A stretch of DNA of 56,685 nucleotides, counting the filler, from Bipalium vagum (lineage: Eukaryota), in the NCBI GenBank assembly GCA_037834085.1. It is 3 parts of 3 records of this genome, joined end to end, with 100 filler letters (N's around TTAATTAATTAA, not from the genome) between each part and the next. Parts side by side here need not be neighbours in the genome. Positions count along the whole stretch, not along the records: positions 38,921 to 56,685 come from JBBMKC010052512.1; 2 more parts are not named here. One strand, given 5' to 3'. Shown here one piece after another: positions 5,269 through 56,613 of this stretch (its first letter is position 1; each line of letters starts with the position of its first letter). A model generated the notes under the pieces. It made no database searches. It was not told the DNA's origin and saw only the letters and a program-made list of their open reading frames with translations. The translations under genes and the position numbers were made by a program.

Positions 5269-6501
5269 TCACGAACAAAAGAATTTCATGATAATTCCAA
5301 ATATGATTGCAATACGTAGGCTTTCTGACCAGAAGGGTTTCTCGGCATCTAATAGGCGACCAATTTGAAGTAGAGTAAATAAAATCATACCAGCACTAAT
5401 TATTAAGATGTTATTAGTTAATGACTTTTCAAAAGCCAATAATATCGAGAAACTAAGATTAGTAGCTATAAAATTAATAAAACAATATATAAATATGGAT
5501 GAAGAGACTTCCTTTTTATAATATTCAACAGGTTTTTCAGGTTCTGAAATACTGTCAACTGAACCCAATCTACTTTGATCTTTTTCCCACCCTGGACCGT
5601 AGAAAATAGCCTTGCATTTTTCTAGAACACCCGTTTGATTCGATACTTTGTGATACAAATGTTTCAAATAAATGATTTGAATTTTTAAAGGGTTCCATGT
5701 TTTAATGGGTTGAACTATTCCGTAAATAACATTATCTTCTTCCTTTTGGAAGGTACCAAAAAGTCTATCAAATATTATTAGAGTTCCACCATAGTTTTTG
5801 TCAATACAATATTTATTTCTTCCATGATGCACTCTGTGATGACTGGGAGTATTGAAAATCCACTCAATAGGACCTAATTTATTAATGACCTCTGTATGAA
5901 TCCAAAATTGATATAATAGATTAAATTGTAAATGGACAACAAATACTGTTGGTGGCAAGAATAAAGCCAATGGTAGGTAAAACATCCAGGCAAAATATCT
6001 TTGTAGTAAACCTTGACGAAGAGCAGTACTTAGATTATATCTTTGAGAACTATGATGGGCCTGGTGAGTTGACCAGAAAAGTGAGATTTCATGACCAGCT
6101 CTATGTACCCAATAATATCCAAAATCAACTCCAATCATTCCACCAAACCAAACAGCTGGAGAATTTTGATCTACTTCAATTATGCGATAATGTTTATGAA
6201 CCCAAATAAAAATCAAAATTTCTGCAGACTTGAAAAAAAATAACGGGACTTGAGATATGATTCCAGCACTGATTGAGCTAATGGAATCACTCCAATCTAT
6301 TCCGGTATATTTTGATTTTTTCCTAAAAATGATTGAAAATTCTATAATAAGCAATAATAAAAAGAATGGAATCGCCTCTGCAACAAAATTTGGAATCGAT
6401 TCCAACGATTTGTAGGTGGTTTCAGCTGGTGTGACAAAATAAAACATCCTTCTTAAAGGTAAAAGCATTTTACTTACATACGTATAATCCATATGGTGCA
6501 A
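5269..6501 (-). CDS. AGMO: Alkylglycerol monooxygenase (TMEM195; fatty acid hydroxylase superfamily), single exon
   Basis: 410-aa ORF with the histidine boxes YYWVHRAGHE, HQAHHSS, QFWIHTE and PSHHRVHHGRNKYCIDKNYGGTLIIFDRLFGTF, which are characteristic of AGMO. Confidence 0.95.
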   Translation of the reverse strand: MHHMDYTYVSKMLLPLRRMFYFVTPAETTYKSLESIPNFVAEAIPFFLLLLIIEFSIIFRKKSKYTGIDWSDSISSISAGIISQVPLFFFKSAEILIFIWVHKHYRIIEVDQNSPAVWFGGMIGVDFGYYWVHRAGHEISLFWSTHQAHHSSQRYNLSTALRQGLLQRYFAWMFYLPLALFLPPTVFVVHLQFNLLYQFWIHTEVINKLGPIEWIFNTPSHHRVHHGRNKYCIDKNYGGTLIIFDRLFGTFQKEEDNVIYGIVQPIKTWNPLKIQIIYLKHLYHKVSNQTGVLEKCKAIFYGPGWEKDQSRLGSVDSISEPEKPVEYYKKEVSSSIFIYCFINFIATNLSFSILLAFEKSLTNNILIISAGMILFTLLQIGRLLDAEKPFWSESLRIAIIFGIIMKFFCS

Positions 6502-8876: not shown

Positions 8877-11800
8877 ATGGTAGTGCAGGTCGAGCCAATC
8901 CCGACCTACATGAAATTTATAATCGGAGCATCATCAGGGTAAAGTATTATTTTTTTATGATTTTTAGGAAATGTTTAACTTGAACTTTGATGAAGAATGT
9001 TAACTACTCTGATTGTTCAACCCTTCGATTTCCTTAAAACCCGAATGCAAATAACTGGTTTCATAAATTTACTGTATATTTCCTTGTTACTATCATAGAA
9101 TAGGTCAAGATGAGCAACGTCAATGCTATAGAAGTAGTTGTGATGCTGCCAAACAGATCATACGAGATGAAGGAATAATGATAATTTACTCGGGGTATTT
9201 TCAAAATTATTTTTATTTATTACAAACTTCTAATTTGTACTTTTAGTAATGTGTTCAACATGTGTCATTTACAAATTTTAACATAGTTTATTAATAATAA
9301 GCTATTAATAATTAATAATTAATATTATTATATTAATAATTAATAATATTTTTTACTGCTATTATTATATCTGCAATATAATAATTGTTTTATTTTTTGT
9401 TCTTTTCTTTCATATTTAAAATAAATTAATTAGTATAATACTGTTTTCAACTTTAGCAAGGTAGCTATAATTTGGAAGATCAAGATGGAATACAACTAAA
9501 ATAGTTTTATTAAAAAATTATATTATATTAAAAAATTATATTATTATATTAAAAAAATATATTATATTACTCATTTTATATTTTTAATTTACCCATTATT
9601 ATATTTTATATTTATTATTATTTATTTTATTATATTTACTCATTATTATAGTATTAAAATATATTACTCTAAACATTTTCTGTATTCTGGCTACCAAGAA
9701 AGTTCAATAAAATAAACAATTACCCAGTGGGTACAGTCCACGTAATACTTTCAATAGTATTATACTTTTAAAAAGAATATTGCCATTCTTCGTAATTTTA
9801 ACATTATGAAAACATTATTAAAAGGGCGTCATCAATTATATTTTTATTGAATAAGGAAATTACTGTAGACAAATAATAATAATAATAAATTCATTTGATT
9901 TTAGTTGCTGTCATAACAACCTGAAGAAATGAAAGAAATTAAAATTGCAGAAAAATTTTATTAAAATAACAAGAAAGTACATTTTAGATATTATATAATT
10001 TTTGTTTCAATTGAATCTCATAATAAAAAATATTTTCTGATTATTATTTTAAAAAAACCTCTTAGCTTAACTGCCGCACTGTTTCGTCAAGCCACATATA
10101 CTGCATCAAAATTGGGGATATATACTATGCTTTATGAACAATTTACTATAAAAAACAAACCGCCAAGCTTCATGATAAAGATTTTGATAGCATTTATATC
10201 CGGAGTCATAGGATCATGTATTGGTACACCTTCTGACATTGCCTTAATCAGAATGACAGCAGACGGAATGTATTTATAATAAAATATTGAAAATATTGAA
10301 ATAATAAATTTTTAGATTACCAATTGAACAAAAACGAAATTATAGAAATGTTTTTCATGCTTTTTATTGTATTACTAAAGAAGACGGGATTCTAGGTTTA
10401 TGGAAAGTAAACTTTGATTTTAAAAAAGATGCAAAAAATCAGATTTTTAGTCAGCTTTTCCTTCAATGAGTCGTGGAGTTGTGGTTACATTGGTCCAGCT
10501 AGCTTCATATTCACAAACGAAACAAATGATGATTGAGAAAAGTATACTTTTTAAAATTTTACTTTTTAAAAACTTTGAATGAGAAGGAAATATTTTATTT
10601 CGTCTATTATCAAAACTTTATTTGACATGACTTATGAATTGAGTAAAATCTGGGAGAATGATATCTCTAAAAGAATTACAAGAACTAATTTTCATGTAAT
10701 ATCATCAGTAGTTAAAATGTCTTGGGTCTCCAGCGATGTACGAATCTTTGAAATAAAAAAATCATTGAAACAGCTATTAAATAATTTAATGATTATGTTC
10801 AGTCTTTTTTCTATGACCTGAGACTAAATCTCTTTTATTGAAAAGTTTACTATTCAAAGAAGTTTGTGTTGAACTAAATAAATGATAATATGATAGTGCT
10901 GTCTTGAATGCAAAGCAGATTAGTGACAAGAAATGTGTGTGATTGTACTGGTGGATTCAGTACCATTTATATTTTGCCATTTTTTTTGAATTTCATTGCT
11001 CAGTTAGATTATCTTGGAATATACCTAAATACTGAACTGATAACCACTTACTTTTAACTGTCATTAACTTCGATTGTAATTTGTGCTGCTTCATTTTTAT
11101 TTGTCACCAATTATTATCAATATTAATTCTGTTTCTACCACATATACCGAGATTATTTAAAAACGATCTTAAAATTGACTTCTTGAACTAAAAATCAAAA
11201 AGATAAAGAAAAATAATTATATGAATAAAATATATTTTTTACCTAAACCAAAGTAAAATAAATAAAGATATATTCATAAAATTAATGTAACGAAATTGAA
11301 AAGTGAATTTAAAAAATAATTGACAGATATAACATTCTGGTGGTAATTTTATATTGATTTAGCCATATTTACTAAAATTATACTTTATATACACTCTTTG
11401 AAAAAATTATTTGCCCATTGTATATTAGAATGAATATTACTTTATATTTTGTCATCATTATGCGTCATAATAAAACAAAGATATTTAACACAAAAATACT
11501 TTATTTAATCAAATATACATTATGACATTACGAACATTCCAATGCATCTCCAATGACTGAAATATCGACCTTCATTAACATCAAAATTTAATCAATTACA
11601 ATAATATATAATATACAGATATATGTAATGGACAAATAATTTTGTCAAAGAGTGTATATTGTATAAGTATATATAAGTCATTTTTATTTCATATTTAAAA
11701 TAGATGTGTTCAAAATATTTATCTATAAACTTATATTTCTAATTTTAATCTACCGTCTTGGGAAAAATTTAAAGAAAAGTATAATTAATTTCAGCATTTC

Positions 11801-16050: not shown

Positions 16051-16790
16051 ATTTGGTTGTCCGGAAAGTTCATTCCGAATTTTAATTACAAATTAAAACG
16101 TAAGGCAATGAAATTTTAAATACATTTATTAAAATACAATTGTTCCATCAGGCAAGTTGAATATTCCATCCTTCCTTAATTTGTTAGATTTTTCATCGAA
16201 AGAATTATCCAAGAGATTGTTGATATCGTCCAAGGAGATAAAGTTTTTTCCATTAAGTGAATTTTGCAATGACCTGAATAAATGGAAATCGGTGGGTGCA
16301 AGGTCTGGTGAATATGGCGGATGAAGTAGCATTTCCCACCCAGATATAAACACTTTCTTGGTGGTGAAAGACATGTGGGGACTCGCATTATCTTGATGAA
16401 ACACCAGTGCTGGGCGTTTTCTTTCAAGTTGTTTGTTATAATTCGTCCAACTGCGAGCCATAGTTTTCAGAAAATTTTTTTCCGTTGGACATTATTATAA
16501 ATGATCCATTTCTCATCTCATGCCATCAATTGCTTCAAAAATGGTGTTACCTTGTTGCGCTTATAATTTAAGTCGCAGACGTTAATGCGATTCATTAGGT
16601 TATTTTCACTTAGAACATATGGAATCCATTTTAAACGATTAATAAAACTAAGCTTCAAAAAATTCTCATGTATGGTGGATTTTGGGATACATAATATCTC
16701 TTCTAATTCCCGTGTGGTATGGCGTGAAATTTTCTCAAGAAGCGCGGTAATTAATACATCTTCAATATGTAATGTTTGTTCTGATTGTAA
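16051..16790 (-). mobile_element. Decayed mariner (DD34D), 3' part with TIR
   Basis: ORF 16129-16461: HQDNASPH..WEMLLHPPYSPDLAPTDFHLFRSLQNSLNGK. TIR-like TTTGGTTGTCCGGAAAGTTC at ~16052. Confidence 0.9.
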
Positions 16791-16916
16791 ATTTTTTTCT
16801 AATCTTGTAAATAATTTACTACTTCATCTTTTTTACATAAAGGAAAACAACCATGTCCTGAATAAATTAAAGGATGTAAAGGTGTCAGTTTAACATAATA
16901 ATAATAATTATTATTA

Positions 16917-17610
16917 CAGTAAAATCTCGTTACTATGCCACCCATCGGGACCGAGCAAAAGTGGCATAATAGCGAGGGTTTGTAAAAAAGACTATTTTTT
17001 AAAGTTACTATCAGGTCAATGCGCGCTGGGCTTCCTCGAAAGAAACAATTTCCTCCTCGACAGTTATTACTTTTATTATCTTTGTTTTCCACCGGTTCCT
17101 CGCTGCACAGTACCTCTTCCGCAATCTCTTCTAACTTAAATGATCCACCAGTCGCAAGGCGCTCGTCAGCATTAAGAAAATCCAACAACTCAATCTATTC
17201 GTTTTCATGCATTTTTTCTTCTGCCGGCAGAGATTCCCAAATCTCGAGCAGCTCAGTATCCTCTGGCTCAGTTTGGATTTCTGCTTTACAGAACTTGGCC
17301 TTTGCAAAACAGTTCCTAATTTCCAATTTGGTGACTTGCTCCCAATCACCTCGAATGACATGTAGAGCGTCAAGCAATGTAAACTTAAACTCCTTTCCTT
17401 CATTCATTGCTTCAAGTCGACGACACAGCAAAAGCTTTTTGTAGTTACGTTTGAGAATCTCTATAATTCCCTAATCCATTGGTTGAGAATTGGCTGTTAT
17501 GTTGGGTGGGAAAAAAACTTGTTGGATGTTTTTCAGCTGAAGCTCTTGAGGGTGACCAGAAAAGTTATCAAGGCAAATCAATACTTTACGACCTTGTTGG
17601 CCAAGTCGTC
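16917..17610 (-). mobile_element. pogo/Tigger (DDE_1) transposon, 3' part
   Basis: LDNFSGH..FFPPNITANSQPMD*GII..LLDALHVIRGDWEQVTKLEIRNCFAKAKF. Terminus TA|CAGTAAAATCTCG with a subterminal palindrome (CTCGTTACTATGCCAC..GTGGCATAATAGCGAG). Confidence 0.9.
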
Positions 17611-17774: not shown

Positions 17775-17874
17775 NNNNNNNNNNNNNNNNNNNNNNNNNN
17801 NNNNNNNNNNNNNNNNNNTTAATTAATTAANNNNNNNNNNNNNNNNNNNNNNNNNNNNNNNNNNNNNNNNNNNN
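17775..17874. other. Artificial contig-joining spacer
   Basis: N44 + TTAATTAATTAA (stops in all six frames) + N44, 100 nt in total. Confidence 0.95.
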
Positions 17875-22645: not shown

Positions 22646-23835
22646 GTAGTTATTAATTCCAAATTTTAATATCAACAGAAGTTATAATTGGACATTAAAG
22701 TTTTATTCTTGAATTGTTCGAATTCATTTAAAATTGTTTTTTAATAAGATTCTTTCAGGAGAAAAGGAATAAAAAAAATCTCATTTATCAAACTGGCATT
22801 AATCTTGATAATGAAAAGAAATCTACGAGATATTAAGAATATATTATTATGATATTCATTGAAAAATCATGAACCCATTTACAAAATCAGATATATTTTA
22901 ATAAATTTTTCATTAACAACAAAAAATATTTATTTGCTGTGTACATATGTACAAGGAGACTTAATTTTGTCACGATTTTATTTTCGCAGATATTTTATCG
23001 TTTAATAAATTTTTGAAGATATAAATATTATAAACATTCTGAAATTTTCCTTATGAAAAATTAGCATTTTTTTTATAAGATACATCAGAAAAAATTGTAG
23101 ATTACATTTTCGTGCGCTTTTTGCATTTTCACATTAAAGATGCAAAATTGAAATTTTAAATTAAATTTTGTTTAATGTTTCTCATTATTTTGTTTTGATA
23201 GATAAGACATTGTCGTTAATCATTAAAATATTTGATAAAATATTTATTTTTGTCTTCTTCACTGAACAATGTATTTATTCACATAATTTTTTTTTAATAA
23301 TTAATAAAGTAAAAATTATTATGAAAAAATATTAGTATGAAAATAATGAAAGAAAATGATTCCTTTTCACCTCTTTTCATTAATTAATTGAATATCATAA
23401 ATAATTAATTATTATTACAGACAAATTGAAAAATATAATGATACTCTGCTCACTTTGATTAATTACTGGTTAGTAATTTAATTCGACCATCGGTTATAAA
23501 CATTATAAAAATAATTATTCTCAATTATTAATATTTAATATTAATATTTTAAAATTTAGAAAATTATTAATAATATAATAATATATATATATATATATTA
23601 TTGTCTTTCAAATAATTAATTTTATAAAATTACTATTTTTTTTAATAAAGATGAATGCATCCATTTATTCAACATTACTGTCAAATCATGTTGTATGGTA
23701 AATCAAAAAAAAAATTTTTTTTGAGAACTGTATAATGATTGGTTAAAAAATCAGCCAATGAAAAAATTATTAATATTAAAATTATATGTATATATAAAAA
23801 ATTAAAATTAAAAAAAGTAAAATAATTCATTCGAA

Positions 23836-24306
23836 ATGGATTTTTACATCAGTTTTAATAATGAAAAACATTTAACAAAAATTGATTATATAGATTATTT
23901 ACAAAATATATTCCTGGATAAAAATACAAATATTTCAATGTACAAAATGGTATATAAGCAACTAATGAAATTAGTTCCTGTAGAGAATAATACATTGGAA
24001 TTTATTGAAATGATAACGAATTTGTATAATAATCGTCTGAGTGAAGAAAGATTTGATATGGAGATCAAGTATTTGATAAGCATTTGGATGCTCATTTTTG
24101 TGGTGGGTGTCGTTAGTAACATCTATGTCATTGCGGTTCTTAGCAAAGTCCGACAGAAGATTGTTTACGAGATCTTTTGCATAGGACTGGCAGTTACAGA
24201 CCTCAGTATATTATTCTTTGCTGTCCCCATAACCACTTTACATTATGGAATGAGAACGTGGATTTTTGGGGATGTTATTTGTAGAATGGTGAACTTTCTC
24301 GTTTAC
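23836..24306 (+). CDS. Class A neuropeptide GPCR (galanin/allatostatin-A-like), exon covering N-terminus to start of TM3
   Basis: TM1 IFVVGVVSNIYVI, TM2 LAVTDLSILFFAVPITT, ECL1-TM3 WIFGDVICRMVNFLVY, then a GTAAGT donor at 24307. No later exons were recognised before the gap at 38821. Confidence 0.85.
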
Positions 24307-24779
24307 GTAAGTTTCATCTGTAATTTATTGCATGTATACTATACTCCAAAGGTAAATATATTTATCCTACAAGAAATAAGTTTATACTATTGAATAATAA
24401 TAACAATGACGATAATAATATAATAATAAAAATAATAAAAATAAACGTTTAAAAGATTTTTTTTCAATTATAATTTTGATAAGTTTTTATATTATTTGTG
24501 ATAATGTTACCAAGAATTTAAACAAAAACGATAACAAGCATGATCTATGCTTTCAGTCAAATGACAAAAATTTATAAAGTCCTATTTTTTACTAAAGACA
24601 GACATATTCACAAAAAGTATACTAAGGACTTAAATATCTAGAATTTAAAATGAACAAAAATATTTAATATCCGAATTTCTTTAGAAAGAAATATAATTTT
24701 CACTAATAATATTAATTATTATATACTTAAAAATTATAATTTTATTATTTATCATAATTAATATTATATTATATTATTA

Positions 24780-25520
24780 TTGAGTTGTAAAGTTCAAAAT
24801 CCAACTAATACAATTTATTTAAAAAAAAAGAATTTTTAAATAGATAAAACAAGAAACTTAACAAAAGTAATTTCCATTGTTATCTATGATCTTTTGCCAC
24901 CTTATAGGTAAATCAATGATTCCTTCCTCATAAAAACTGGTGGACTTAGACATAAAGAAATTGTCCACAGCGTTTTTGATATCGACCTCTTTAGAAAATT
25001 CTTTTCCATTCAGATAATTTTGAAGAGACCTGAACAGATGATAATCTGAAGGCGCGATATCAGGTGAGTACGCCGGATGAGGAAGAACTTCCCATTCTAA
25101 TGCCTTTAATTTTTCCTGTACGATTTTTGAAATATGGGGTCTGGTATTGTCATGTTGAATGATGACATTCTTTCTGTTTATCAATCCTGGTCTGGATTTT
25201 TTAATTCCAACTCAAGTCTCCCTAATTGATCACGATAAACGTGTCCTGTGATAGTTATGTTACATGGTAAAAGATCGTAATATATTATTCCACGAAAATC
25301 CCACCAAACAGATATCATAATTCATGCCTAATTCATGAAGATGAGTGGCAATGGTAGTGTGGGAGACCTGAATGTGATCTCCCAAATGACGCCTTGTACA
25401 CATAAGATCTCCCTCGATAAGAGATAGAAGAACATTGTTATCCAAATTTGATGAACTTCCTCCTCTTCTTTCGGAAATATCAAAATTTCCGCCTTTAAAT
25501 CTTCTAAACCATAATTATAG
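24780..25520 (-). mobile_element. Internally deleted mariner, same family as 54475-55664
   Basis: ORF 24858-25184: QHDNTRPH..WEVLPHPAYSPDIAPSDYHLFRSLQN. TIR TTGAGTTGTAAAGTTCAAAATCCAAC matches TTAGGTTGTAACATTCAAAATCCAAC at ~54475. Confidence 0.92.
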
Positions 25521-37900: not shown

Positions 37901-38249
37901 AAAATAAAAAACGCCAACACCTGAAATATTGCAGCAAATATCGTATTAAAATCATAATTTAAATGTCATGGGTGTAACAGCCTATACATAGAGACACAGC
38001 GTCACCTCAGAACACGTATTAGTGAACATTCGCAATTAAGTAGAATAGTTTTAGATAATTCTTTGAATTTTGGTGCGAAAAAAGGTAAAGTTAGCGCTGA
38101 AGAATTTCTAGTAATTATATATAACATATAATGTATAATTATTTATATTTGTCTTTGTTAAGTTTGAAATGGTTTTATTCCTAAATTTTAAAATAATTCC
38201 TATTTAAAATATTCAAATGAAATATTTCTTAGCATATTTTAAATAAAAG

Positions 38250-38820: not shown

Positions 38821-38920
38821 NNNNNNNNNNNNNNNNNNNNNNNNNNNNNNNNNNNNNNNNNNNNTTAATTAATTAANNNNNNNNNNNNNNNNNNNNNNNN
38901 NNNNNNNNNNNNNNNNNNNN
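38821..38920. other. Artificial contig-joining spacer
   Basis: Identical N44-TTAATTAATTAA-N44. Confidence 0.95.
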
Positions 38921-39282
38921 CGATCTTTTAAATCTTTTGATATGTATTTTACGTCATGTTTCATTGCTGCTGCATCAACTCTGTTTATTGGTATTGAGTC
39001 AGGTTTAGGAATTAGGGGAACATTTAGATTTCCTGTTTCATTATAATTATTTACTATTTCTTCATAAATTTCTAATCTTTTATTAATATGCGAGCCTGGT
39101 CCCGTATATTGGTGAGTTGGATTTGTTTTATTAAAAGAATTTAAAAATTTTAAATGAAATTCACCAGGATATTTTTCTGTTGTAAATTTATTTAAAAATT
39201 TGTTGTTTGTTATAGCTGATTGAATATCTCCACCTGTTTTTATAAAGAAGGATTGATATTTTTCTAGAATATTTTTAATTTT
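38921..39282 (-). CDS. Parvovirus-type phospholipase A2 domain (PLA2X-like), partial
   Basis: Stop-free 120 codons absent from the ORF track: KTGGDIQ..YPGEFHL..HQYTGPGSHINKRL..PINRVDAAAMKHDVKYISKDLKD. Contains the YxGxG Ca2+ loop and the HDxxY catalytic motif. Confidence 0.88.
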
Positions 39283-39379
39283 TCAATGGTCATTGTTTTT
39301 TTTTTTGGTTGTTGTTTTTTTTCTCTCCTCCTCTCTCTCTCCTTTTCCCCTCTTCTCCTCTCTCCTCTAACTCTTTCTC

Positions 39380-39486
39380 TAATATATTTTCTTTATGAAT
39401 ATTTGAGTTTTCATGACGGTTTCTATTTTTTTTAAAAGAGACTTTTGACAATATATACAAAAATAATCTTCTTTATTTTGATTCAT
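39380..39486 (-). pseudogene. C2H2-type zinc-finger remnant upstream of the PLA2 domain
   Basis: MNQNKEDYFCIYCQKSL, then a frameshift in a T-homopolymer, then KNRNRHENSNIH (C-x2-C..H-x5-H). Confidence 0.5.
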
Positions 39487-39766
39487 ATTTTTTAAAGAAA
39501 AAATTTGATTTTTTATCTTTTTCAAGTTTAGTTATTTTTTACTTTTTTACTATTTTTTTTATAATTTTTTTATTTATTTTTACTTAGTTTTTTTACTTAT
39601 TCTTATTTATGTATTTTTTTTACTTATTTTTATCCTCATTTTTTAACAGAAACGAAAATCCTGCTTGCGGAATTTTCGGTACTCTTAACTACTATCCTTT
39701 AACATATCCTATTAAATATATATAATTATTCAAATCTTCTACACTATAATCTTTTTGTCCATTTAT

Positions 39767-40265
39767 TTAAAAAATATTAGCATAATGTTCAGCTTCAATT
39801 AATGATTTTGAACCTTCTGATAATATTCTTGATTTTGGCTCATTTTGTTTTGGAAAATTAATGTCATTACCAATTTTAAAAAACTCAAAAGAAATTATAT
39901 TTATTGTTGAAATATTTTTTCCATTGATGGTAATTGGTAATTCAAGATTAATACGAAAAAAGTTTTTAAAATTAACATCTTCATATTTAGAAAGCTTATC
40001 AATTTTGTTTATTGAAAATCTAATTAAAATTTTTAACCTTACCTTCATGTAAAGCAATTAAATTCTTAGTTTTATTATTTACTTTTTCATTTATTTCTGC
40101 AAGCTCTCCTTGCACATCGCCTGTGCCAGAGCCTTCGGCTAGCTTAGGTCGATCGATCGTATCTACTACTGGTTTATGAAAAGTTGTTAAATATTCTTGT
40201 AATACTCTTTGTGATTTCCGTTGATTAACTACTTTATTATTAAAATATTCTTCTAAAGCTATCAA
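39767..40265 (-). pseudogene. Frameshifted hypothetical viral ORF
   Basis: Overlapping ORFs 40020-40265 and 39767-40057 lie on the same strand as PLA2, are intronless and contain LTTFHKPVVD. No function assigned. Confidence 0.4.
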
Positions 40266-40824
40266 TTTTATTAATATTTAAATTTCATTTTTATTACAAT
40301 TACATTTATTCGTAAAAAAATTGAAAAATAGATTCCCTTCTTAAATTATTTTTATAAATTATAAATATGATGTTTAAAAAATATATATAAATGTCCCCAC
40401 TAAAATTTTATTTTTATAAAATTATTTTTTATTTTATAAAATGAATATCCAAGAATATTTCGAAGAGTACTATAAGAATTATTCACCTTAATATTCAGAA
40501 ATCAATAATGTAAAACTTATAATAAATCCTACAAGTTTCCAAGTATTAGATGAATTAAACCAAGAATTAGATAGTTCATTTGATTTAACCAACCTCAATT
40601 TCATAAGAGCTGTATATTATCAAGTAATTGTTTAGATTTCAAATAAATAATAACTGTTTTTCTCTTGAATCATTTATTGTATATTATAATTTTTTTAATG
40701 TAAATAAAAATAAAAGTATTTATGAACTTATTGAAAATATTATTAAATTTATATTTTAAAAAATAAGAAAATGTTAATCATCAACATAATATGATTTAGC
40801 AAGAAAAATAAAATTATAAAAGAA

Positions 40825-41128
40825 AATGAAGCGGGTGGAAAAATTTAGTAAATGTAGTGTTTTTAAAAATCCGGATTGATTTTATACAGGAAGAAAGTAC
40901 TGTAAAAAATTTCATGATAAAATTGTTAATTATAAGTTATATATATATATATAAGTTATAACATTCAATTTGCACAAAATGAATTACCTATTAATTCTTA
41001 TAAGCAATGTAATTATTGTAATCTTTCTAAACCTTTGTCTGAATTTAAAATTAGAAAAAAATGTAAAGAATGTAGAAATAGTGATAAAAGAAATAGACAT
41101 CAAAATTATTATTTTTCATATTTCTTAA
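40825..41128 (+). pseudogene. Viral-type CxxC zinc-finger repeat remnant
   Basis: KQCNYCNLSKPLSEFKIRKKCKECRN, preceded by a degraded copy (KCSVFKNPD*FYTGRKYCKK). Confidence 0.55.
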
Positions 41129-41147
41129 GGATAAAAAATTTATAATA

Positions 41148-41194
41148 ATGTCCCCACTACACTTTATATTTAAAAATAATTGTGGTGGGGACAT
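41148..41194. promoter_or_regulatory. 14-bp-stem hairpin in the viral block
   Basis: ATGTCCCCACTACA - 19-nt loop - TGTGGTGGGGACAT (one G:T pair). A third copy, ATGTCCCCACTA, lies at 40391-40402. Function is inferred only. Confidence 0.5.
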
Positions 41195-41465
41195 AAATAC
41201 TTTTTTGTACCACCCTGAAAGCATGTGCCATTTTTAAGTGATTCAGTAAATGATAAAAATTGTGTTCTAAACTTTTCATATTTTTTATCGTTTTATTTTA
41301 TCTTTGATATAATTAGCTTCTTCAGGTTTAAGTTTTAATAATTGGCTCTCAAATTTTTCTATTTTTTGTATGTCTTATTTTTTTCTTCAATTATTTTAAT
41401 TGATTTTGAATATTAAATAAAAGAGAATTATTTGTTTTACTAATTGCATTAAATAAATAGTCGGA

Positions 41466-41741
41466 TTAAATCCTCATGAAACCTTGTTTCATATACTTTA
41501 AATTTACAATATCATTATCATTAATAGGATCAGGAGTATTTATTAATTCATTATTATTCATATTTAAAATTCCTTTCATAGAATCCACGGTAACATTTAA
41601 AAATTTATTTTTACTTTCATCTCTAATAAAATCAATTTCTTCTCTAACGTCATTTTCATTATTAAAATTAAACTGAAAAGGTGATTTTGAATAAATATAT
41701 TCTCCATTTTTAACAATATTAACAAATACTTGATCACTCAT
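41466..41741 (-). CDS. Small ORF with a fibre/adhesin neck-like motif
   Basis: 91 aa containing DSMKGILNMNNNELINTPDPINDNDIVNLKY, which fits the GxLxMxxxxIxNxxxPxxxxDAxxxxY motif of tail-fibre and trimeric adhesin proteins. Confidence 0.55.
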   Translation of the reverse strand: MSDQVFVNIVKNGEYIYSKSPFQFNFNNENDVREEIDFIRDESKNKFLNVTVDSMKGILNMNNNELINTPDPINDNDIVNLKYMKQGFMRI

Positions 41742-41944
41742 TTTTAATTTTAAAAAATATTGGAGAAATTACAGAGGGTAGTTCTCGTTTATGAATTTGC
41801 TAAAATTTTATATTTGAAAAATCTGTACCCATTAGATGAAGCATATTTAAATACATTGCAAGAAATTTATAATAATTTGATAATGAGAATCTTTTATATT
41901 TCCTTAGGATGATTTATAATCTAATGTGCGAAGCTTCGATTTTT

Positions 41945-42171
41945 CTAAAATAGCAATCTAATTCTTCTAAAATATCTTCAAATGTTTTTCATGTATAAAG
42001 ATTATATAAAACATATAAGTTTAATTGTCCACACTAATCTAATTCGGTATCAGATTTGTTAAATGTTAATTTAATTTCTTTAACATGTTTTTCTAAATCC
42101 TTAAATTGAGGCAAACCATAAGAATCAATGTAAAAATTTTTATAATATCCAGCACAATGAATTCCTGCAGT
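41945..42171 (-). pseudogene. Adenain-like (Polinton C5-type) cysteine protease relic
   Basis: One frame: AGIHCAGYYKNFYIDSYGLPQFKDLEKHVKEIKLTFNKSDTELD*CGQLNLYVLYNLYT*KTFEDILEEL. Matches the pattern GxHW..Y.DS[FY]GLP..CG...LY.L, with catalytic H, D and C in order. Confidence 0.78.
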
Positions 42172-45100
42172 TCATTCCCATAAAATCGTCCTAATATTTT
42201 TTTCCATTTTTATCTATAATTCCATAAACAATTAGTTCAAAACTAAATTTTATTATAAATATTATACTGTTTTGTTATAATGCAAATTAAAGAAAATTTG
42301 ATTAACTCAATAAAACAAAAGGGATCCCAACCATAGTTTCTCCAAAATTTTTATTACATTCAATACAAAATAAATTCTCTGATTTTATTGATATTTATAA
42401 TTATAAAATGTTTATTACGTATAAATAGTGAGTTACTAAATTTAAAAATGTATAAAAATCAAGAAATTTATAAAATTAATATAAAACATATTGTAAAATC
42501 AATGAAATACTTTTATTAAATACTTCATAAAAATTTTTTAAAAAATAAAACAATAGATTTATGGATATTGTATTACAATCATAAGTTTTAAAATTCAAAG
42601 AATTAAAACACTAAAATCAAAAAATTGATACAAAGGAAAATCAATAACAAAAAGTAATTAATGAAAATTTTGATGGTAGTGAGGAAACTGCTAATTGCGC
42701 TGCTATTCAATTTTCGATATTCAGTATTCATAAAATTGAAATAATCAAAACTAAATTTGGCTTATTTGATATTATAGCTTGGGTGTTGATCGTAATTACC
42801 AGTTTCCCCACTACTCATGTGTTATCGTATTTTCATGACATTTTTTCATAGATGTATTTTAAAATAATAAAAATAGAGGTGTACAAGTAGAGGAAAAATG
42901 AAGAGTGAAGATACTCAAGTAGATTGATTTTCTTTCATATTTGTAGTAGGAAAACTCAAAATAAATCGACTCCGTAGCTCTAAAATATAAATTAGAAAAT
43001 GACATTTTAGTCAGAATTTATTCATTTTTTAGGCTTAAAAGGTTGAATTTTAATTTAGGCTGTGGTAAAATTGCTAAAAAGATTGTTATCCAGCCGAAAT
43101 TTTAAAAATCGCAGATTCTTCAGGTTTTGTGCTATTTTTAATCATTTTACCACCACTGGCAATTTTTTCGACTTGAATAACGAATTCATTTTAATTTCCT
43201 TTATTTTAATTTCAGGTAACGACTAACAATTGTAAAGAAGTTGAATAATTCTCCAGTATTGAATACAAGATATTGGAAGTGGAAAAATATTTTTTCTTTT
43301 ATTATTATTTTAATTTTACAAAGAATAGACAAATTCAGAGATGGTTGAAAACTTTGAAAATATTTTTATCTTACGGTGTAGTTTGAGACATTTATTGAGT
43401 AAAAAGTTTGTCTTGTACATAATAACTAAATAAACTTTCTAAAATTATACATTTATTTTACTTATTTCAAAACCAATATTCTTGAATTAATCTTAGGTTG
43501 AGAATGGATAATATGATATTTTTATTATTTATTATATTGTTCTAATATATTTTGATAACAAAACTATCACAAGTCAAAAAATCAAAATATAAACCATTTC
43601 AATTTTATTCGAATTATATTATTACAAATTACATTAGTAAAACATAAAAAATTATAACGTGATTAATATATAGTTATCAAAATTTTTATTTTGTTACATA
43701 ATATAAATAAAAAACCGTGATTTCTATACTGACTAGTGCTCTAATGAGTACTTTCATACACCAAAGGCCTTTGGAAAACATTGGTATAGATTTAAGTTTG
43801 GAAGTATTTTCTTATATTACTTGAAAGGTATAAAATATATTGTTCAAATATAAATCTCATTAAAACTAAAATCAATTAATTTTTATCAAATTAGAAAGCT
43901 GCAAAAATACATTCTAAAATATAAAATTATTTTAATAGCATAATAACAATATTTAATAAAGAAAATAATGATAGCTAATAATAGTAATAAAATATAAGAA
44001 ATTAAAACACTTACTATCACAAAATTGTCATGAATAACTTTAGATCCAAAAGCCTATTAAAATGTATTATATTTCTGAGAAACTTTAGTTAATCAATAGC
44101 ATGCAATAAAATGGGTTAAGTAAAAAATAAAATAATCTTCCATTAACCTAAAACTACAACAATTACGACAAGTATAGAAAAAACTGACCTTAAAGATGTG
44201 TAGCTTCTTCTTCTATATTTTAATTGAATAACTTAATTAAGTGTAATAAATTGACTGTAAATTAACAATTGCAGAAATAAAGTTTATAATATTTCGGAAA
44301 TAATGAACTTAATATGAAATTAATTCATTATAGAATCTTTATTAAAAGTAAAGCTGTTTACAACAAAAATTAAGATCTACACGATTTTAAAATAAATAAC
44401 TCTAAAGAACTATTTATTATAATGGTAATATGTAGATTGTAGGAGCTTTGTTTAATCTAGTACTTAAAAAAACAAACAAGCCAAAAAATATTTTTCCAAG
44501 ACAAAATACTTGTATGCAATCGAACCAGTTTATAAAGAATTTTTTATATCTAAAGTTAGAACTTCAGATACGAATACTCAAAATTTTGTAGGTGCTTCAT
44601 ACGTCTGAAAGAGCTCAACACTTAATTTTTTATGGCTGGGAACAAAAAGATGTGAATACAAAAAAAGATGAATATAGCGTATTAATTAATGTGTCATTAT
44701 TTCTACATTTTTAGTGACTGCTAAGTCGATTGTATGAGACATATTGAAGAATAGTTTTTCGATTATTCTCTATAATTTTGGAAACCACCTTTAGTACACA
44801 AACCTTTGTATACTATTGCCATTGACAGCTCTTTTATTCTCTAAGTTCTTTTAAAACGATGATTCACCATTGAATACAAAAACAATAGACTGTTCCTTAC
44901 TGTAAGGCTCTTATAAAAAACGTCAACGTTTCATTAAAAATTACCACTGTAGTAAAATAAAAATTGAAGGATTCTTATTAAATTATTTTATTTAATTACC
45001 ATAAATAATAAAAAAAAATAGTAGCACTAATTTATTTTCTACTTGCTTTATGGTATTTTTATGGAGGACTTTAACTTTTATTTCAGAGTTAATTACTTAC

Positions 45101-45213: not shown

Positions 45214-46451
45214 TCAGATTGTCTAATAATTTTGTTTGTTCTCTTCAAACAAGGTACACAATAGGAACATTTATTTTTTGAAACAGATTAATAATAATCA
45301 ATATTAACAGATTAACAATAATTAATATGTTCTCCGCTATTGTTTATGATTCCACCCAAGGACTTGCTTGAAAAGCTTAACGGGTTTAAATGCGAACCAA
45401 TCACGAAGCCAATTTTCCAGTTTATCTTCATTATCAAACGAAATTTCCTTTAAAGCACGAGAAAAAGATTGATAGAGATGGAAAACGAAAAGAGCGAGGT
45501 CAGCTGAGTAGGCCGAGAGAGGAATGACCTCCAATCCAACAGAAATCTTGGGGCGGGCATTGTCGTGTTGAAGAAAAACATAATATATTGATGATCTGGA
45601 TGATTTTGAATAATTGAGTTGTTAATACGATGCAACTGTGCACTGCGGCTATGATTGTTTGACACCTTGCAAGCATTTCATGGTGAATAATGCCTGTCAT
45701 ATCCCACCATATGCATAGCATTAACTTCCTTGGATAAAGACAGCTGGTGATGCCTGTTCTAACCCATTCTTTCTTTGTTTGATATTAAGATTAGACAGTA
45801 CTTTTCATCCCCTCTAACCATTGAGCTCAAAAACGCCTGATGTTGATCATGGGTCAGGCGATATCGAGCGAGTAAAGAGATGTATATATAACTGTTTGAT
45901 CTTTGTTTTAACACTTTAATTTTTGTGACACCAACGAGCCATATTTTTGCAATTTTTCAACTGCATTTAGTACGGTTTGTGGTTACAAACCAATTTTGGC
46001 ATATACTCTCTTTTTTGTCTAGATATTTTAAGGAAACCTTCCAAACCTTTTACGAAAACCTTAGGACGCCACCATGAAGCCGGTTTTTTTAAGCTCAAAT
46101 TTCTCTTCTTTGAAGAGGACAATCCATTTTTGAGCTTTTCGTTGTCCTATAAAATCTACCATAAACCTCACAAGTCTTTCGAGCAATCTCAATAGCTTTT
46201 CGTAGTTCGCCGTTCTTCTTAATAGTAAAATTGAACTCTTAAAGAAATACTTATCGGAGATGTTCATTTTTTTCACTTGCATATCCATACAAAATATCCA
46301 AAATTTTTAAATATAAACACAAACAAAATATTAAAATAAGTTTGAAAGAAGATAACCATAGCTATAAAATAATAAATATTTAAATGATCTAATTAAATAA
46401 GTCTTAAAAATAAATGTATTTAAAAACGAACGAAATTATTGGACAACCTGT
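45214..46451 (-). mobile_element. Near full-length decayed mariner (~1.24 kb)
   Basis: TIR pair CAGATTGTCTAATAATTTTGTTTG / CGAACGAAATTATTGGACAACCTG; MLCIWWDMTGIIHHEML; QHDNARP; SAYSADLA. Confidence 0.88.
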
Positions 46452-49500: not shown

Positions 49501-52500
49501 ATTCTAAGATTTATTAAACTACTATTTTAAAATTTAATGATTTAATAAGTTATAAAAAATAGTTGGTTTATGAAATTATGTACTGAAATTTGCGAAAAAA
49601 CCTTACAGACATGGATTCCTCGAATTATGAGAAACAATTCAATTTTTGTGATACGAAGAGTAGAAGATTAAACTTGGTTGTAGATTTCATTAATTAATTT
49701 TGAAAATTTCTCGTCAATTGTTTTATTACAGATACTTAGATTAAAATCAGGAATTTGTGATATTTAAAATATATGTAATACGAAATTTCGTTTATATCTG
49801 ATTATTATATCTGACTTGAAATGCGAGCAATGTTTTTAAGGAATTAATTCAACAGTAAAGACAAAACCTATTAAAGAAAAAAAATTCACCTTTATGATCA
49901 ATTTTATCTAACATTTCTCTAAAGAACACATTCTGAGATGATTCATCATTTTCTAAATGTTGCCAGGTTTCTTCACCTTCACAGCCATAAAGAAGGTTTT
50001 TAAAGGATCGAGCACGATTTGCCATTATTCGTAATTTATCAAAATTTATTAAATATTCACTGTCGGATTTTTGATCATTTTCTGGTCCATCAGCATTAAC
50101 CTTTGTTGGATGGACTTCGTTAATGGTTGTTAAGTCTTTCGTTACGAGAGCAGCCATTGGTATAACCGGAGATTTACATGATTTGTGAAGACTTCGTAAC
50201 AGTCGCATGTTACCAGACACATCCAATAATTGCTGCATCTGACGATACATTTTTAATTCTTTATTCGGTACTTTTTCCCAAGTTGCACGAAGACGACTAA
50301 TCTCCACTGAAATATTTTTTTAAAAATTCATCTCTAAATAAATAACTAAATGAACTTATTCTTATTTTACAAAAAAATTATCGGAAAATAGATAATTTTA
50401 AATCATAAAAATAAAATTAGTGTATTAATGTGATTTTTGATCAATCGGTACAAATTAAAATAATAATAAGTAATAAAATAATTTTCTAACTAACTAAAAA
50501 ATTATAAGTTTAGAGCACATAAGTAGAGATTTTTTTAAATATAAAATTAAAATTCATAATCATTTAATGTCAAAAAATAAAAACTGAGTTAAGTTAAATA
50601 AGTATTTATTGAATCACTTCGAGAAAAGTGATTAAAATAAATACGGAAAGTAAAACAAAGTTATTAAATATCAAAATTAATAATAAGAGAATTGCTTACG
50701 CTTAGTAGCACATTAATAATTATTGATAATAATAATATATTAATAACTTGAGAAATGCTATCTGGTAGAGACTTTAACAGATCTTACAATGTTCTCTTCT
50801 TGTGTCCTCCAAAGAACGGGTGATAGAAGATTTCAGTTTTATGATGGACTGGAATTGTCTTCTATCTTCAAAAATTGTGTACAGACAATTCTCATAAATT
50901 TTATATAGGACTAATGAGGCCAGGTTGGATCCATCAGGTGGAATCAAATAAAAGAAATTGATCAGCGAGCTAAAGATTTCAATGAAGAAAATTAACAAGG
51001 ATGCAACTGTGGACAATTTATAATCCTGGTATCGTCGATCGTATCACATTTGAAAAGGTAAGAGTAAATATATTTTTTGATGTTCAAAAATAAGTTTATT
51101 CTAGAAAGTTTCTTTTACTTAAAATATATTTGAAGTTCAATTTATTTTAAAAATTTTGAAATTTAAACATGAGTATCATTATATGTTGAACACCGTTATA
51201 ATTTGGTCATCTTATTTAGTAAAAATATGTTAAACTTTTTAGTAAATTAAGAAATCAGATTTAAATTATCAATTATTTAAAAATCAAACAAGAGGATATA
51301 AAAAAATATTACTGATAATAATAATAAAAATGTCTCAAATATATAATTTAAAATTTATATAATTCAAATTCATTAACATACCTCTGTCTAAACCATTCAT
51401 CAGTGAAAAGAAAATTTCAATATTACCGAGCTCCTTGCAAAGTCGAGCTAGTCTTATTAATCGTTTTAAAATTTTACTGCGTCTTGTGGTACTTTGACTT
51501 TCAATGCAAACGACATTGACAACAAAATATATATACTTTTCCCCGAGCTTAAGATATTCCTGGAAATTATTAAGAATTTCAGTTTTCATATCTCGAGTTT
51601 CGTTATTAGCTTCATTTAAAAATTTTCGATCATTTTGATCAGGTTTTGATTTTCCGATCAAACCCTCTTTTCTTGATTTTCCAGTAACAAAATCAATTAT
51701 TTCCGACAAATTTATCCTTTTGAAAGAATTATAACTCTCAACGAAAATCTGAATGGCCAACTCACAAACAGGAAGATCGAGAAATGATACATTCATTTGA
51801 GAATTAATTTCTTCAATATCAGAATTATCAATTAATTGTCCAGAGAAGTCTCGTCGTTTTAAATAGAACCGGGTGTTCAGTTTTAGGCTGTAAATAATAT
51901 TTTCATGAAGAAAAAGGAAAGAGTAAAAATAATTTTGATCTTATTAAATTTTTTTAATAGAAAATGATTATTATATTATAGAAAAAAATTATATTATAGA
52001 TTATAATAGAAAATGAAATGACATAAATTATTTTATTATAAGATAATTTTCTGTGACTTTATTAGTTTATTGTAAATTATCATTGTCCGGTATTAGTATG
52101 TTTATGATTACAAAGATTGTTCCATTTTAAGGATTATCATATTGATATCATATTAAACTTTTCCCTTACAGCAGAAAGTGATTTCAAGCGATTAATAAAT
52201 ATTCAATTCAGCAACTTCATCTTAGAGCAATTAACGAAAAAAATTATGAAAGATCTTCGACGATTGTTCTTCAAAATCAATAGTATTTTTCCGACGAATT
52301 TGAAATATTTCATATTATTATATTATATTTGATTGTCAGTTATGAAAAAATACGTGATAATAATCGATGAGGTGTAATTAAAAAATCATATGAAATATGT
52401 GCACATGAAAAAGTGTAAAATTAAATTATTTATAATTTTTAATAGATTAAATTAAAGACGTAGACTGATAAATTTCAATAAAAAAGATTCAACTACGAAA

Positions 52501-55500
52501 TTTTAGCTGATAACCATTTAAGTTAGACTGATACGGTTAAATAAATTCATAATACCTTTTTATAAACATACTTTCATTAACTATAGAACATTATGGGTAT
52601 TTTATAATAATGTGGAAGACATGGAGAAGCCACACAGTTTTATGTATACCTGATTTATTGAATTCTTGTATAATTATATGAACATGTTAGTGGAAAAGGG
52701 TGATAAATAAAGATTATAACACATGCATTACATATTATTCATTAACTTATTATTTAAAAAAATTTCTAAATAAATATTAAAAGATTACTGGAAATTATGC
52801 AATAACAAAATACAATGCCATCCATATGTTTGGAACCATCCCTGTAATTTACAGTCGGCGCTCAGTTATTTGAACTCTTAGTTATTTGAACTTTCAGTTA
52901 TTTGAATAATTTTTTGAAAAATGAAGACATGTCTATTCAAACAAAGCTGGAAGATCATGGATTTGTTTTAAAATAAATTTTATTTGTAATTGAGTTATTT
53001 CAATAATTGAGTTTTTTGAACTTTTTTGAAATCCCCCCGAGTTCAAATAACTGAGCGCCGACTGTACATAAAATTATGGAAACATAATTATGAGCACTTT
53101 TATGTACATAACGGTCCATAAAATATTTAAACCTTAAAATTTTCAACAATTTAGTATTTAAACTGCTATAAAACAAACAATTTTTAAGATAATCAAAAAC
53201 GGTTTATTGCATGTTATGGAATATTTATTTACCAATTCAATACATTAAGAATATTTTCATTCATTTGTAGATCCTCCGACCAATTTGATTACTTCCTTCA
53301 AAAGAATAGGTATACTCCAAATCAGGTTATTGATGAATTCTCGTAGAATTGCTTCCAATTCTGACCTAACCAGTTCCCAGAGATCTTGTTTTATGCTAAT
53401 ACCTTTTCCATGAATCCTTCTATCAATATAGTCCCATATATCTTCAATCGGGTTTAAATCGGAAGATTTTGGTGGGCAATCCGGGATATAAGTATCGATT
53501 TTTGTTCCAGCTACATTTTCACCGATTTCGCTTTATGACGGCGCATTTCTTCTTGAAATAGATATTCATCATCTGGATGCACTCTAGAAATAGATTGAAG
53601 CAAACCATTCTTCAAAAACTCTTGGCAACATACAGTATTCATCTTCATGCCTGTGACATTTACCAGCAATCCACACCTTGACGGCTAAAGCAGCCCAAAA
53701 CCATAATCCCATCATTAAATTTCGATGGTTTTGTAAGACATTCCTGTAGGGTTACATTTGATCTTCTGATACACATTTCTGGTCGATCTGACAAAAGACA
53801 AAACCCAGGTTCGTCAAACCAAATCACTGATCTCCAATACTCAAATGTTTCATTTTCATATTTCTTATCCCATGCAAATCTTTTTTGAATATTAGCAGAT
53901 AACATCGGTTTAAAAATAATCTTCAGAACAGCAATATGGGAAACAGATAACTGATACTTTTCCAACATCATCCTATTTACCTGTCCATAGGAAAACCCTG
54001 AATCACAAAAAGGGGATATCTTTGAACGGCATTCATTTGATAATTGATGGCCACGTGTGGAATTCATTACTGTGTATCTCTTAACCATAAGATAAAGATA
54101 CTTTATGATGAATTTTAAAAATATCTTCAGTATTATTTGAATTTGCAATTTTCAAACCAAATAATTTGAAATTTGAAAGAATTTCATTTTGATGTATAAT
54201 TAAACAACATTATTAAACTTGTTTGAATTATACTTCATCTAAAATCTTTAACCTTTAATAAATACTTAAAGTAATATGATTATTCCTGCGGCCAACTAAA
54301 CAAAAAACACACCTTTAATTAAAAGCTGTATCCCAACAATATTCTACATGACATTAAATTTTAAATTTCTGTACTGGCTTTAGTTACTAATGTTCTAAAA
54401 CATGCAAAAAACCGTTTCTGATTATCTTTTTTTGTAGAGAAAAGAATTTTTCAAAAATATGATTTTGTTAGTTATTAGGTTGTAACATTCAAAATCCAAC
54501 TTATTATACACTAATTTTTGAGACCATATTTCTCAACAATAAATAAAAAAAATTTATAATTACTATTTATTTAAAATGTTAGTAACATGTTGTTTTACTG
54601 ATTAGTTTGATTTAATAATTTTACAAAATTTTAAATAATTAGATAAAATTAATTTTAGATGAATACTTTAGAAATTCATATCAGGAATTGTTTGATATAT
54701 GAATTTAGAAAGGGATCAACCAGCTTAAATGCATTAAAAACATATCACCAATCTATTCTGAATGTAATCTGTCACTAGATAAATGTCAAAGATGGTTTAG
54801 AAGATTTAAAGGCAGAAATTTTGATATTTCCGAAAGAAGAGGATGAAGTTCATCAAATTTGGATAATAATGTTCTTCTATCTCTTATCGAGGGAGGTCCT
54901 ATGTGTACAACGCGTCATTTGGGAGATCACCTTCAGGTCTCCCACACTACCATTGCCACTCATCTTTATGAACTAGGCAAAGTCCATAAGCGAAGGTTAT
55001 GGATTCCTTATTGCTTAAGTGAAAGCAACAAAAATAACAGTGTTGACTTTTTCTTCTCTTCTCCAAAGATTCCATAACGATATTTTTTTAAAAAGAATTG
55101 TAACAGGAGATGAGAAGTGAGTGTACCACGTCAACATGAAAAGAAAAAAGCAATGACTTAAGCCTGGCCAGAAGCCGATACCCACTACCAAACCAGACCT
55201 TCATCCTCGCCGAATTATGATGTCTGTTTGGTGGGATTATCGTGGAATAATATATTACGATTTTTTACCACGTAACATAATTATCACAGGACATGTTTAT
55301 TATGACCAATTAGAAAGACTTGAGGTGTAATTAAAAAATCCAGACCAGGATTGATAAACAGAAAGAATGTCATCATTCAACATGACAATGCCAAACCCCA
55401 TATTTCAAAAATCGTACAGGAAAAATTAAAAGCATTAGAATGGGAAGTAACATTAGAATGCCTAATCCGGCGTACTCACCTGATATTGCGCCTTCAGATT

Positions 55501-56407
55501 ATCATCTGTTCAGGTCTGTTCAAAATTATCTGAATGGAAAAGAATTTTCTAAAGAGGTTGATATCAAAAACGCCTTGGACAATTTCTTTATGTCTAAGTC
55601 CACCAGTTTTTATGAGGAAGGAATCATGAATTTACCTATAAGATGGCAAAAGATTGTCTTTTGAATTGTCTATCATTATATAAAAACATTTTTAGAATCG
55701 AAAAACTTCTTTCGACACCCGACTGATATTTTTGAAGCATATCATAAAGTTCCTGGGAATTTCATTTCAATATAATTCCATAATTACCTTTATTTAGTTT
55801 TTCTCTAACCTCTTTTCAATAAACATCTACAGTTCAACAAAAAACATGTCTGAACACACAACAAACACTTACAACAGAAACAACAAAAGATGCTTTCATG
55901 TGAAATTGAAAATTCGTCCAGATATTTTTTTGTAATTTCTTGAGTCTTACTCATTAGAGATTTTGCAATTTTCGGCATTTTAAATATATAATTATTATTA
56001 TTAAAATATACTTTATTATTAAAACAATTTAAATTTTATTGCATTAATTGAATTATTATTATGTATTTATAATAAATTAATTAAAATAAAAAAATAATTT
56101 AATTGACGAACAAAGCTAACTTTGATATTAAATTTGAAGAATTTTCCTTAATTATCTTTTGCTTGACAATTGAGTCTGACTCTACCGAGACTTCACACAA
56201 GCAAAATTCAGAATTCGATGTGCAATTTAAATTTAACTCTACAAGACTTTTCACAATGACTTCAAGAGCTTCTATCTCCTTGTTGATAATCAAATATACA
56301 AATCTCACATTGAGCTTCCCAGAAGTCGATGAATCACTTGGATCTTTATAATGTACCTTGATAACAGATTCATATGGACTGATTGACAATTCGCCATTAG
56401 AAGAACT
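46502..56407 (-). CDS. PDZ-GEF (RAPGEF2/RAPGEF6-like) Rap guanine nucleotide exchange factor, last six exons; 5' end outside the window
   Basis: Phase-consistent GT-AG exons: 56407-56121, 51887-51382, 50306-49890, 48103-47828, 46915-46754, 46704-46502(TAG). RA domain (FCLCEVSVESDSIVKQK..RFYLK), CDC25/RasGEF domain (ISRLRATWEKVP, VIPMAALVTKDL, LINFDKLRIMA, KKIYE..MSYKCEP) and a C-terminal PPPY motif. Confidence 0.9.
48590..49100 (+). mobile_element. pogo/Tigger remnant in PDZ-GEF intron
   Basis: FKGSDGW (CENP-B HTH) followed by IMDE-like sequence. Confidence 0.5.
50770..50960 (-). mobile_element. Tc1-like 3' remnant
   Basis: RRQFQSIIKLKSSI, similar to Tc1/Tc3 C-termini. Confidence 0.35.
52852..53064. 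mobile_element. pogo/Tigger-type MITE (213 bp)
   Basis: Perfect 26-bp TIRs CAGTCGGCGCTCAGTTATTTGAACTC, TA on both flanks, three tandem AGTTATTTGAA units at the left end. Confidence 0.93.
53240..54090 (-). mobile_element. Decayed Tc1 transposase
   Basis: YWRSVIWFDEPGF, GIMVLGCFSRQGV, DCPPKSSDLNPIEDIWDYIDRRI. Confidence 0.88.
54475..55664 (+). mobile_element. Decayed mariner with left TIR and nearly complete transposase
   Basis: HIRNCLIYEFRKG, LWIPYCL, IVTGDEK*V, MMSVWWD, QHDNAKPH, YSPDIAPSDYHLF. Confidence 0.93.
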
Positions 56408-56613
56408 CTGATGAAATTTTAAATGATCACAATTATTTTCATTGTTATTTTATTAAATTTAAAATAATAAATTTGTGAAAACATGCTATGTTATAACTAG
56501 GGCAATTTTTTTTTAACCTAAAAAAATTTTTTTAACTTTATTTTTAAAAATTTTAACCGTATTTTAATATTTAGCGTACCTATTAAGGCAAAATATTTTT
56601 AAAAACTTTATTA

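Follow-up and report, generated by a model that had tools for sequence, protein, structure and literature searches.

The window analysed here, a stretch of 56,685 nucleotides of Bipalium vagum DNA (GenBank assembly GCA_037834085.1), contains a 3.3-kb relic (38921..42200; GC 22%) directly to the right of an assembly gap. The relic resembles a group 2 Maverick in its workings and probably belongs to that group. The reading that we favour, by a modest degree, is that a repeat family of group 2 Mavericks (alpha-adintovirus-like) has left decayed genes here, that in this family a parvovirus-type phospholipase A2 (PLA2) likely heads a zinc finger-PLA2-integrase polyprotein which the element's own protease would cut, and that pieces of two neighbouring copies are preserved. 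On the minus strand the order is integrase tail, half a protease, a fibre-like open reading frame (ORF), a middle part, a zinc finger, PLA2 and the gap. The integrase head and tail lie ~3 kb apart in permuted order, with a hairpin of 14-bp stem between them, and they are therefore likely to be pieces of two copies. With moderate confidence we assign the integrase tail, deleted protease and fibre on the right to the end of one copy, and the left piece to part of a second. Only short ORFs remain in the relic, and the copy is dead, with breaks in its zinc finger, its protease and its integrase tail. The locus itself is ordinary: the kind of element is known, and this dead copy has very many sisters. 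Of note is the architecture it exposes, a fused integrase and possibly a short satellite.

The PLA2 domain (38921..39282, minus strand; ORF 38923-39282) is open to the gap. It has a GG motif (39229-39234), an intact YTGPG calcium loop (39094-39108) and an intact His-Asp dyad (38953-38958); the Pfam family PF08398 matches with E 0.0024, below Pfam's cut-off, and 8 of 13 candidate proteins match at 57-73% identity. These results bear out the parvovirus-type PLA2 that the sequence-only reading of this DNA had named. A PLA2 profile had no significant match in the PDB. PF08398 is the parvoviral PLA2 family, and a fold search with the truncated PLA2 model returned parvoviral VP1 rows, none of them significant (best Z 2.4 in the whole search), so that two other origins have to be weighed, a VP1 fragment from an endogenous densovirus and a host PLA2 beside chance motifs. 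However, a parvoviral capsid or cellular PLA2 family was found in none of the 62 matches scanned (of 104 representatives), 58 of which carry PF08398. The nearest full-length relatives run on into an integrase and not into a jelly-roll VP, relatives sit in Maverick gene arrays, and no shuffle out of 100 scored as high as the protease, the integrase tail or the zinc finger. The densoviral or host reading is thus largely refuted and is very improbable.

A metagenome scan for PLA2 relatives, with families checked by Pfam, gave 69 loci in 29 groups. An A32 ATPase is present in 47 of the 69 (16 of the 29 groups), an adenain-like protease in 22, a double-jelly-roll capsid in 17 (6 groups) and pPolB in 5, all of one group. 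With integrase also beside the PLA2, this neighbourhood agrees with the Polinton/adintovirus origin proposed earlier. Seven of these loci (L011, L013, L018, L022, L029, L043, L052) represent a Maverick family with a matrixin metalloprotease beside its end, among which L018 looks nearly complete. In another (L061:1328-14205), PLA2, ATPase, protease, capsid and a separate integrase accompany an 830-aa ORF without Pfam match.

PLA2 and integrase are fused in 16 of the 69 loci, and the integrase stands directly behind PLA2 in 44; in 5 loci the contig stops too early to tell, and integrase is missing from 4. Since the integrase is directly behind PLA2 in 60 of the 64 assessable loci, the integrase core of the window's copy very probably lies in the gap. 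A search with the window's PLA2, limited to proteins of at least 276 residues and so favouring fusions, gave 21 matches, 20 of which carry PF00665 (rve); the top three join PLA2 to an rve integrase and share 65-69% identity with the window's PLA2. In a quick tree search (114 rows, 125 columns) the window's PLA2 and these three fusions sit in a clade of ten with 100% SH-aLRT support, whose only three full-length members are all PLA2-rve integrase fusions and not pX-bearing. From these relatives, the PLA2 is likely to be the front domain of the integrase gene and not a free-standing PLA2X-type entry gene. Another protein, P0068 (522 aa), joins a PLA2-like domain to a DNA adenine methylase domain.

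Eighteen PLA2/integrase junctions were parsed from the 44 loci given. Eight are in frame and ten are split, five at -1, four at +1 and one by an in-frame stop, and in eight of the ten split junctions the integrase frame lacks a Met. A programmed -1 frameshift between PLA2 and integrase was considered and is unsupported, there being no single frameshift direction; broken fusions or A-run errors fit the split forms better than recoding does.

The other parts of the integrase gene were found at both ends of the relic. A frameshifted C2H2 (U1-like) zinc finger at 39350..39486 on the minus strand (profile 27.5 bits, 0 of 100 shuffles; match at 39350-39471) forms the N-terminus of the PLA2 gene. In a frameshift-aware profile it resembles the N-termini of L001, L002, L004 and L005, and the order of zinc finger then PLA2 is common to L001 and L002. 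A GA-rich microsatellite (about 39320-39380) and a stop separate it from the PLA2 frame. At the far end, a frameshifted remnant of the C-terminus of an rve integrase (42165..42232, minus strand) abuts the protease half and scores 32.4 bits with a frameshift-aware profile, against a null of 14.8 +/- 1.9, with 0 of 100 shuffles and a next best score in the window of 21.1. The motif at 42165-42203 had been considered as the protease N-terminus, which is ruled out by the frameshift-aware test, where it is integrase tail. The statement in the sequence-only reading that no integrase is seen does not hold, as the integrase gene is visible at its tail and, through the zinc finger, at its head.

The protease remnant (41959..42165, minus strand) is the C-terminal half of an adenain-like enzyme. 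Its His, Asp and Cys are present, two in-frame stops interrupt it, and ~60 N-terminal residues are missing. Queried alone it matched nothing in the protein collection, Pfam or PDB. A profile built from 16 Maverick proteases and run against the whole window did find it (E 4.6e-7), and hhalign with the relatives' family gave 95.6% (E 1.3e-8). That family matches African swine fever virus (ASFV) pS273R (E 6e-7) and adenain (E 2e-4), and in Pfam seven of ten relatives' proteases hit Peptidase_C5 and one hits C48. The adenain-like protease that had been suspected from its catalytic residues is thereby confirmed. Next to it, a fibre-like ORF (41466..41768, minus strand) holds one repeat of the type found behind the protease in relatives. 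It matches a relative's ORF by tblastn (E 1e-4) and a repeat profile at 42 bits (next best 17.7), the pattern of which was partly shaped by eye from the same ORF; the fibre-like assignment made earlier is upheld. Integrase is followed by protease in L008, L010, L031-L034 and L042, and a fibre-like gene comes after the pair in L008, L033 and L034. In L031 (6005 bp), a PLA2-integrase-protease-ATPase-fragment unit is repeated head to tail with a 2.6-kb period, in a permuted layout like that of the window; this repeat may be an amplification chimera.

Several points weigh against the reading of a zinc finger-PLA2-integrase gene in pieces of two copies. The split forms (44) exceed the fused ones (16) among the loci, two of the ten split integrases have their own Met, and rve was found by Pfam in only 2 of the 62 scanned representatives, many of which are short or partial. 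The fusion proteins P0011-P0013, as called, start at the GG and lack a zinc finger. The integrase core is absent from the window's sequence, and the integrase tail is short, with plain HMMER giving only E 2.2, not significant without frameshift handling. No long terminal repeat was found around the hairpin, where similarity ends after about 25 bp. Finally, profile searches gave no match to pPolB, A32/FtsK ATPase, capsid or pX in the element, in a window cut by the gap and with pPolB profiles that are partial and come from one distant group; for polymerase, packaging ATPase and capsid this repeats what had been noted from the sequence.

The sequence-only reading had taken the relic for the virion entry and maturation module of one full-size element, with PLA2 as a separate PLA2X-type virion entry protein and the core genes past the gap. 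Stand-alone PLA2 genes are indeed known in alpha adintoviruses and insect Mavericks, according to the available parts of the sources (PMC8502044; PMC5803895), PLA2 and integrase are in separate frames in 44 of the 69 loci, and most scanned representatives are without rve. Against this stand the three fusions, which are three of three full-length clade members, the lack of a pX match in the element, and the integrase tail at the far end, which is needless in a single element. pX is kept as a separate gene in relatives L003 and L004. A separate entry protein is therefore improbable; of the earlier proposal the Polinton relic stands, whereas its PLA2 is likely an integrase head and its parts likely pieces of two copies.

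If the PLA2 does head the integrase, the borders between the domains become important. In an AlphaFold model of the natural fusion P0012, PLA2 occupies residues 15-145 and is followed by a low-confidence linker from G147 and then by an integrase fold, which matches the foamy-virus intasome (E 5e-15) and a MELD-virus integrase (E 2e-18). G-x-G or GG occurs at the PLA2/integrase border in 23 of 26 fusions and GG ahead of PLA2 in 22 of 26. Among 73 twelve-residue windows, such glycine counts are reached only at the N-terminal GG, the calcium loop and the border; the four acidic residues examined are conserved in 25-26 of these fusions. Adenain-type proteases cut after such glycines, and the motif at the border suggests protease processing. 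On the other hand, G-x-G also ends stand-alone PLA2 ORFs and may be structural, and many border sites misfit the adenain cleavage consensus at P4. In an active element, the zinc finger-PLA2-integrase fusion would be packed into virions and the adenain-like protease would cut it at the GG before PLA2 and at the G-x-G after it; the freed PLA2 would breach the membrane for entry, and ready-made integrase would be delivered with the genome, as in retroviral Gag-Pol. This scheme as a whole is tentative and falls slightly on the doubtful side. Lipases of polinton-like viruses (PLVs) and Polintons have been proposed as virion-packed entry aids (PMC4642659, in the part available). According to the accessible text of a recent preprint, no Maverick virion has been observed so far (bioRxiv 10.64898/2026.06.19.733378). 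As to how the integrase reaches the incoming genome, the widespread PLA2-integrase fusion together with the conserved glycines at both domain borders predicts that it travels as a protein of the virion and is set free by the maturation protease.

Between the two pieces lies a middle part of mixed orientation. Two overlapping ORF remnants of 96 and 85 aa (39767..40277, minus strand) have no assignment; their likeness to the relatives' coiled-coil gene beside the integrase was seen by eye and is not significant: of 102 queries that gene came second, with a score much like those of unrelated ones. On the plus strand, a short interrupted ORF (40441..40635), also without assignment, is followed by zinc-ribbon remnants (40820..41145). 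Of these, 40936-41145 resembles endonuclease VII or HNH ribbons (PHROG phrog_1035, E 5.6e-6), and a CxxC-like remnant at 40820-40951 was recognized by eye only. With the C2H2 finger, the two zinc-finger remnants noticed earlier are both accounted for. The motif ATGTCCCCAC occurs in three copies, all between the integrase head and tail and none elsewhere in the window; no 10-mer recurring in this way was seen in any of 200 shuffles or of 28 other windows. The first copy is at 40391..40400 (plus strand), and the other two are inverted and form the 14-bp stem of the hairpin (41148..41194; -13.6 kcal/mol, z -5.2, 0 of 200 shuffles). This hairpin may represent two abutting element ends, the terminus of a small transposon that was inserted here, or a signal for transcription where genes converge. 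No 6-bp target duplication could be placed around the element. The relative L018 carries a 224-bp inverted repeat.

The gap itself (38821..38920) is a placeholder of 44 N, a 12-base linker and 44 N, past the edge of which 21 contigs of run X1 continue. It and the gap at 17775-17874 are both 100-base placeholders with the linker TTAATTAATTAA, and their lengths are nominal. One public sequencing run, possibly the window's own source, holds 0.69 of the stretch's sampled words. In an alignment that covered 600 bp only, and in which depth is not copy number, 1145 contigs of that run align: 57 at 99% identity or more, 126 at 95-99%, 394 at 90-95% and 568 below 90%, so that 962 are less than 95% alike. 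This is a large, diverged repeat family, which explains the assembly gap. Of the 40 variable places listed (71 in all), 26 are at third codon positions (p 4e-5); the lineages therefore diverged under protein-level constraint, before the window's copy decayed. Scans of viral contigs found no relative of the relic, and among the listed runs holding the stretch there was no RNA run.

Such repetition, together with a piece that ends at a gap, could make the permuted order an artefact of collapsed-repeat assembly; alternatively, the middle 800 bp (40392-41193) could be an unrelated small TGT...ACA transposon that was inserted. This segment begins with TGT, ends with ACA and has TAAA on both sides, and Ginger elements have TGT ends and 4-bp duplications, as described in the part of PMC2836005 available. 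A four-base match is weak in 78% AT sequence, however, pairing is better for the inner motif copy (41148) than for the outer, and two integrase pieces remain even with an inserted middle. Against the artefact stands the only run found, which contains the fraction of sampled words given above, though it may be the source itself. Both versions together are decidedly improbable.

A more serious, though still unlikely, rival is that the relic stems from a family of short Maverick derivatives (about 4.5-5 kb) that lack polymerase and capsid, lie head to tail here, move with their own integrase and use a helper's replication and capsids. The layout of each would run from one end through zinc ribbons, unknown ORFs, PLA2-integrase, protease and fibre to the other end. 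If the hairpin joins two ends, the distances are 2.2 kb from one end to the integrase head and about 1 kb from the other to the tail, too little for pPolB, capsid and ATPase. The left arm, in its inner reading, begins AGTGTAGT, which resembles the AGTAGT start of three related loci; these belong to one group, share that start and have unrelated flanks. The very many copies in one run and the unmatched core genes also accord with it. Yet both pieces are decayed, one with a clear internal deletion, and private deletions can explain the short distances; the inverted repeat does not go beyond about 25 bp, the third motif copy at 40391 is left over, and close loci have an ATPase (L004) or a capsid (L005). 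If the short helper-dependent form were true, it would be a satellite of Mavericks. A bolder combination, which we consider rather improbable, is a Maverick satellite of ~5 kb, lacking polymerase and capsid and present in this host in hundreds of copies, whose protease-cut zinc finger-PLA2-integrase polyprotein rides in helper virions with the entry enzyme as the integrase's packaging handle.

Elsewhere in the window, host genes include a rhodopsin-family GPCR at 23821-24393 (+), a RasGEF with an RA domain at 49849-56449 (-) and a mitochondrial carrier at 9965-10279 (+); the GPCR and RasGEF genes mark the host as an animal. An alkylglycerol monooxygenase-like gene (5269-6501, -) is a single open frame of 410 codons and apparently intronless. 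Two mariner-like copies, at 24889-25512 and 54792-55654, lie in opposite orientation 30 kb apart and are 93-95% alike, and further mariner, Tc1 and pogo remnants are found at about 16100-17500, 45300-45800 (PF01359, E 3e-8) and 53250-54150. A GIY-YIG endonuclease-like remnant at 37958-38131 (+), recognized by eye and without Pfam match, is presumably what is left of a Penelope-type element.

Among known systems, the parvoviral and densoviral VP1 unique region has the same PLA2 family, calcium loop and His-Asp dyad, and differs in that the nearest full-length relatives of the window's PLA2 have no capsid behind it; parvoviruses are not known to have a protease or an integrase. Retroviral Gag-Pol is alike in its workings only: the integrase fold is shared, and so, probably, is the synthesis of integrase and a virion protein as a single chain from which a viral protease releases the integrase, whereas Mavericks are DNA elements with a cysteine protease, no reverse transcriptase and no consistent programmed frameshift. 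Ginger DNA transposons have an rve-type integrase with accessory domains, and their TGT ends and 4-bp duplications are like those of the middle 800 bp. Their terminal repeats are 40-270 bp long, whereas this segment shows only about 10 bp, with TAAA flanks; they have an H2C2 finger, PLA2, adenain and fibre are not described for them in the available part of PMC2836005, and the window's relatives are found among capsid genes. Within Mavericks, PLA2 is already described, as PLA2X or CAP, in the sources as far as available: phospholipase is given as common in group 2 (bioRxiv 10.64898/2026.06.19.733378) and as characteristic of alpha virion modules (PMC8502044). Precomputed Pfam calls already show PLA2 and rve domains paired. 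The fusion was not found in the Maverick and adintovirus literature searched, outside of which lie Repbase and subscription journals, and the supplement figures or protein files of PMC8502044 may show it. Spodoptera Mavericks 1 and 2, with their 'CAP' ORF, likewise hold PLA2, protease and integrase in one element, although in the available text PLA2 stands at the front of a small ORF of its own, and another ORF encodes the integrase, with a chromo domain (PMC5803895). The closest likeness is to group 2 Maverick-Polintons or alpha adintoviruses (Polintoviricetes), which share the parvovirus-type PLA2, adenain-like protease, rve integrase, fibre-like gene and residence in an animal genome. Their pPolB, ATPase and capsids are not seen in the window's copy, and their PLA2X, in the part of the source available (PMC8502044), has a C-terminal pX and stands apart from the integrase, whereas in the clade of the window's PLA2 the phospholipase is fused to the integrase.

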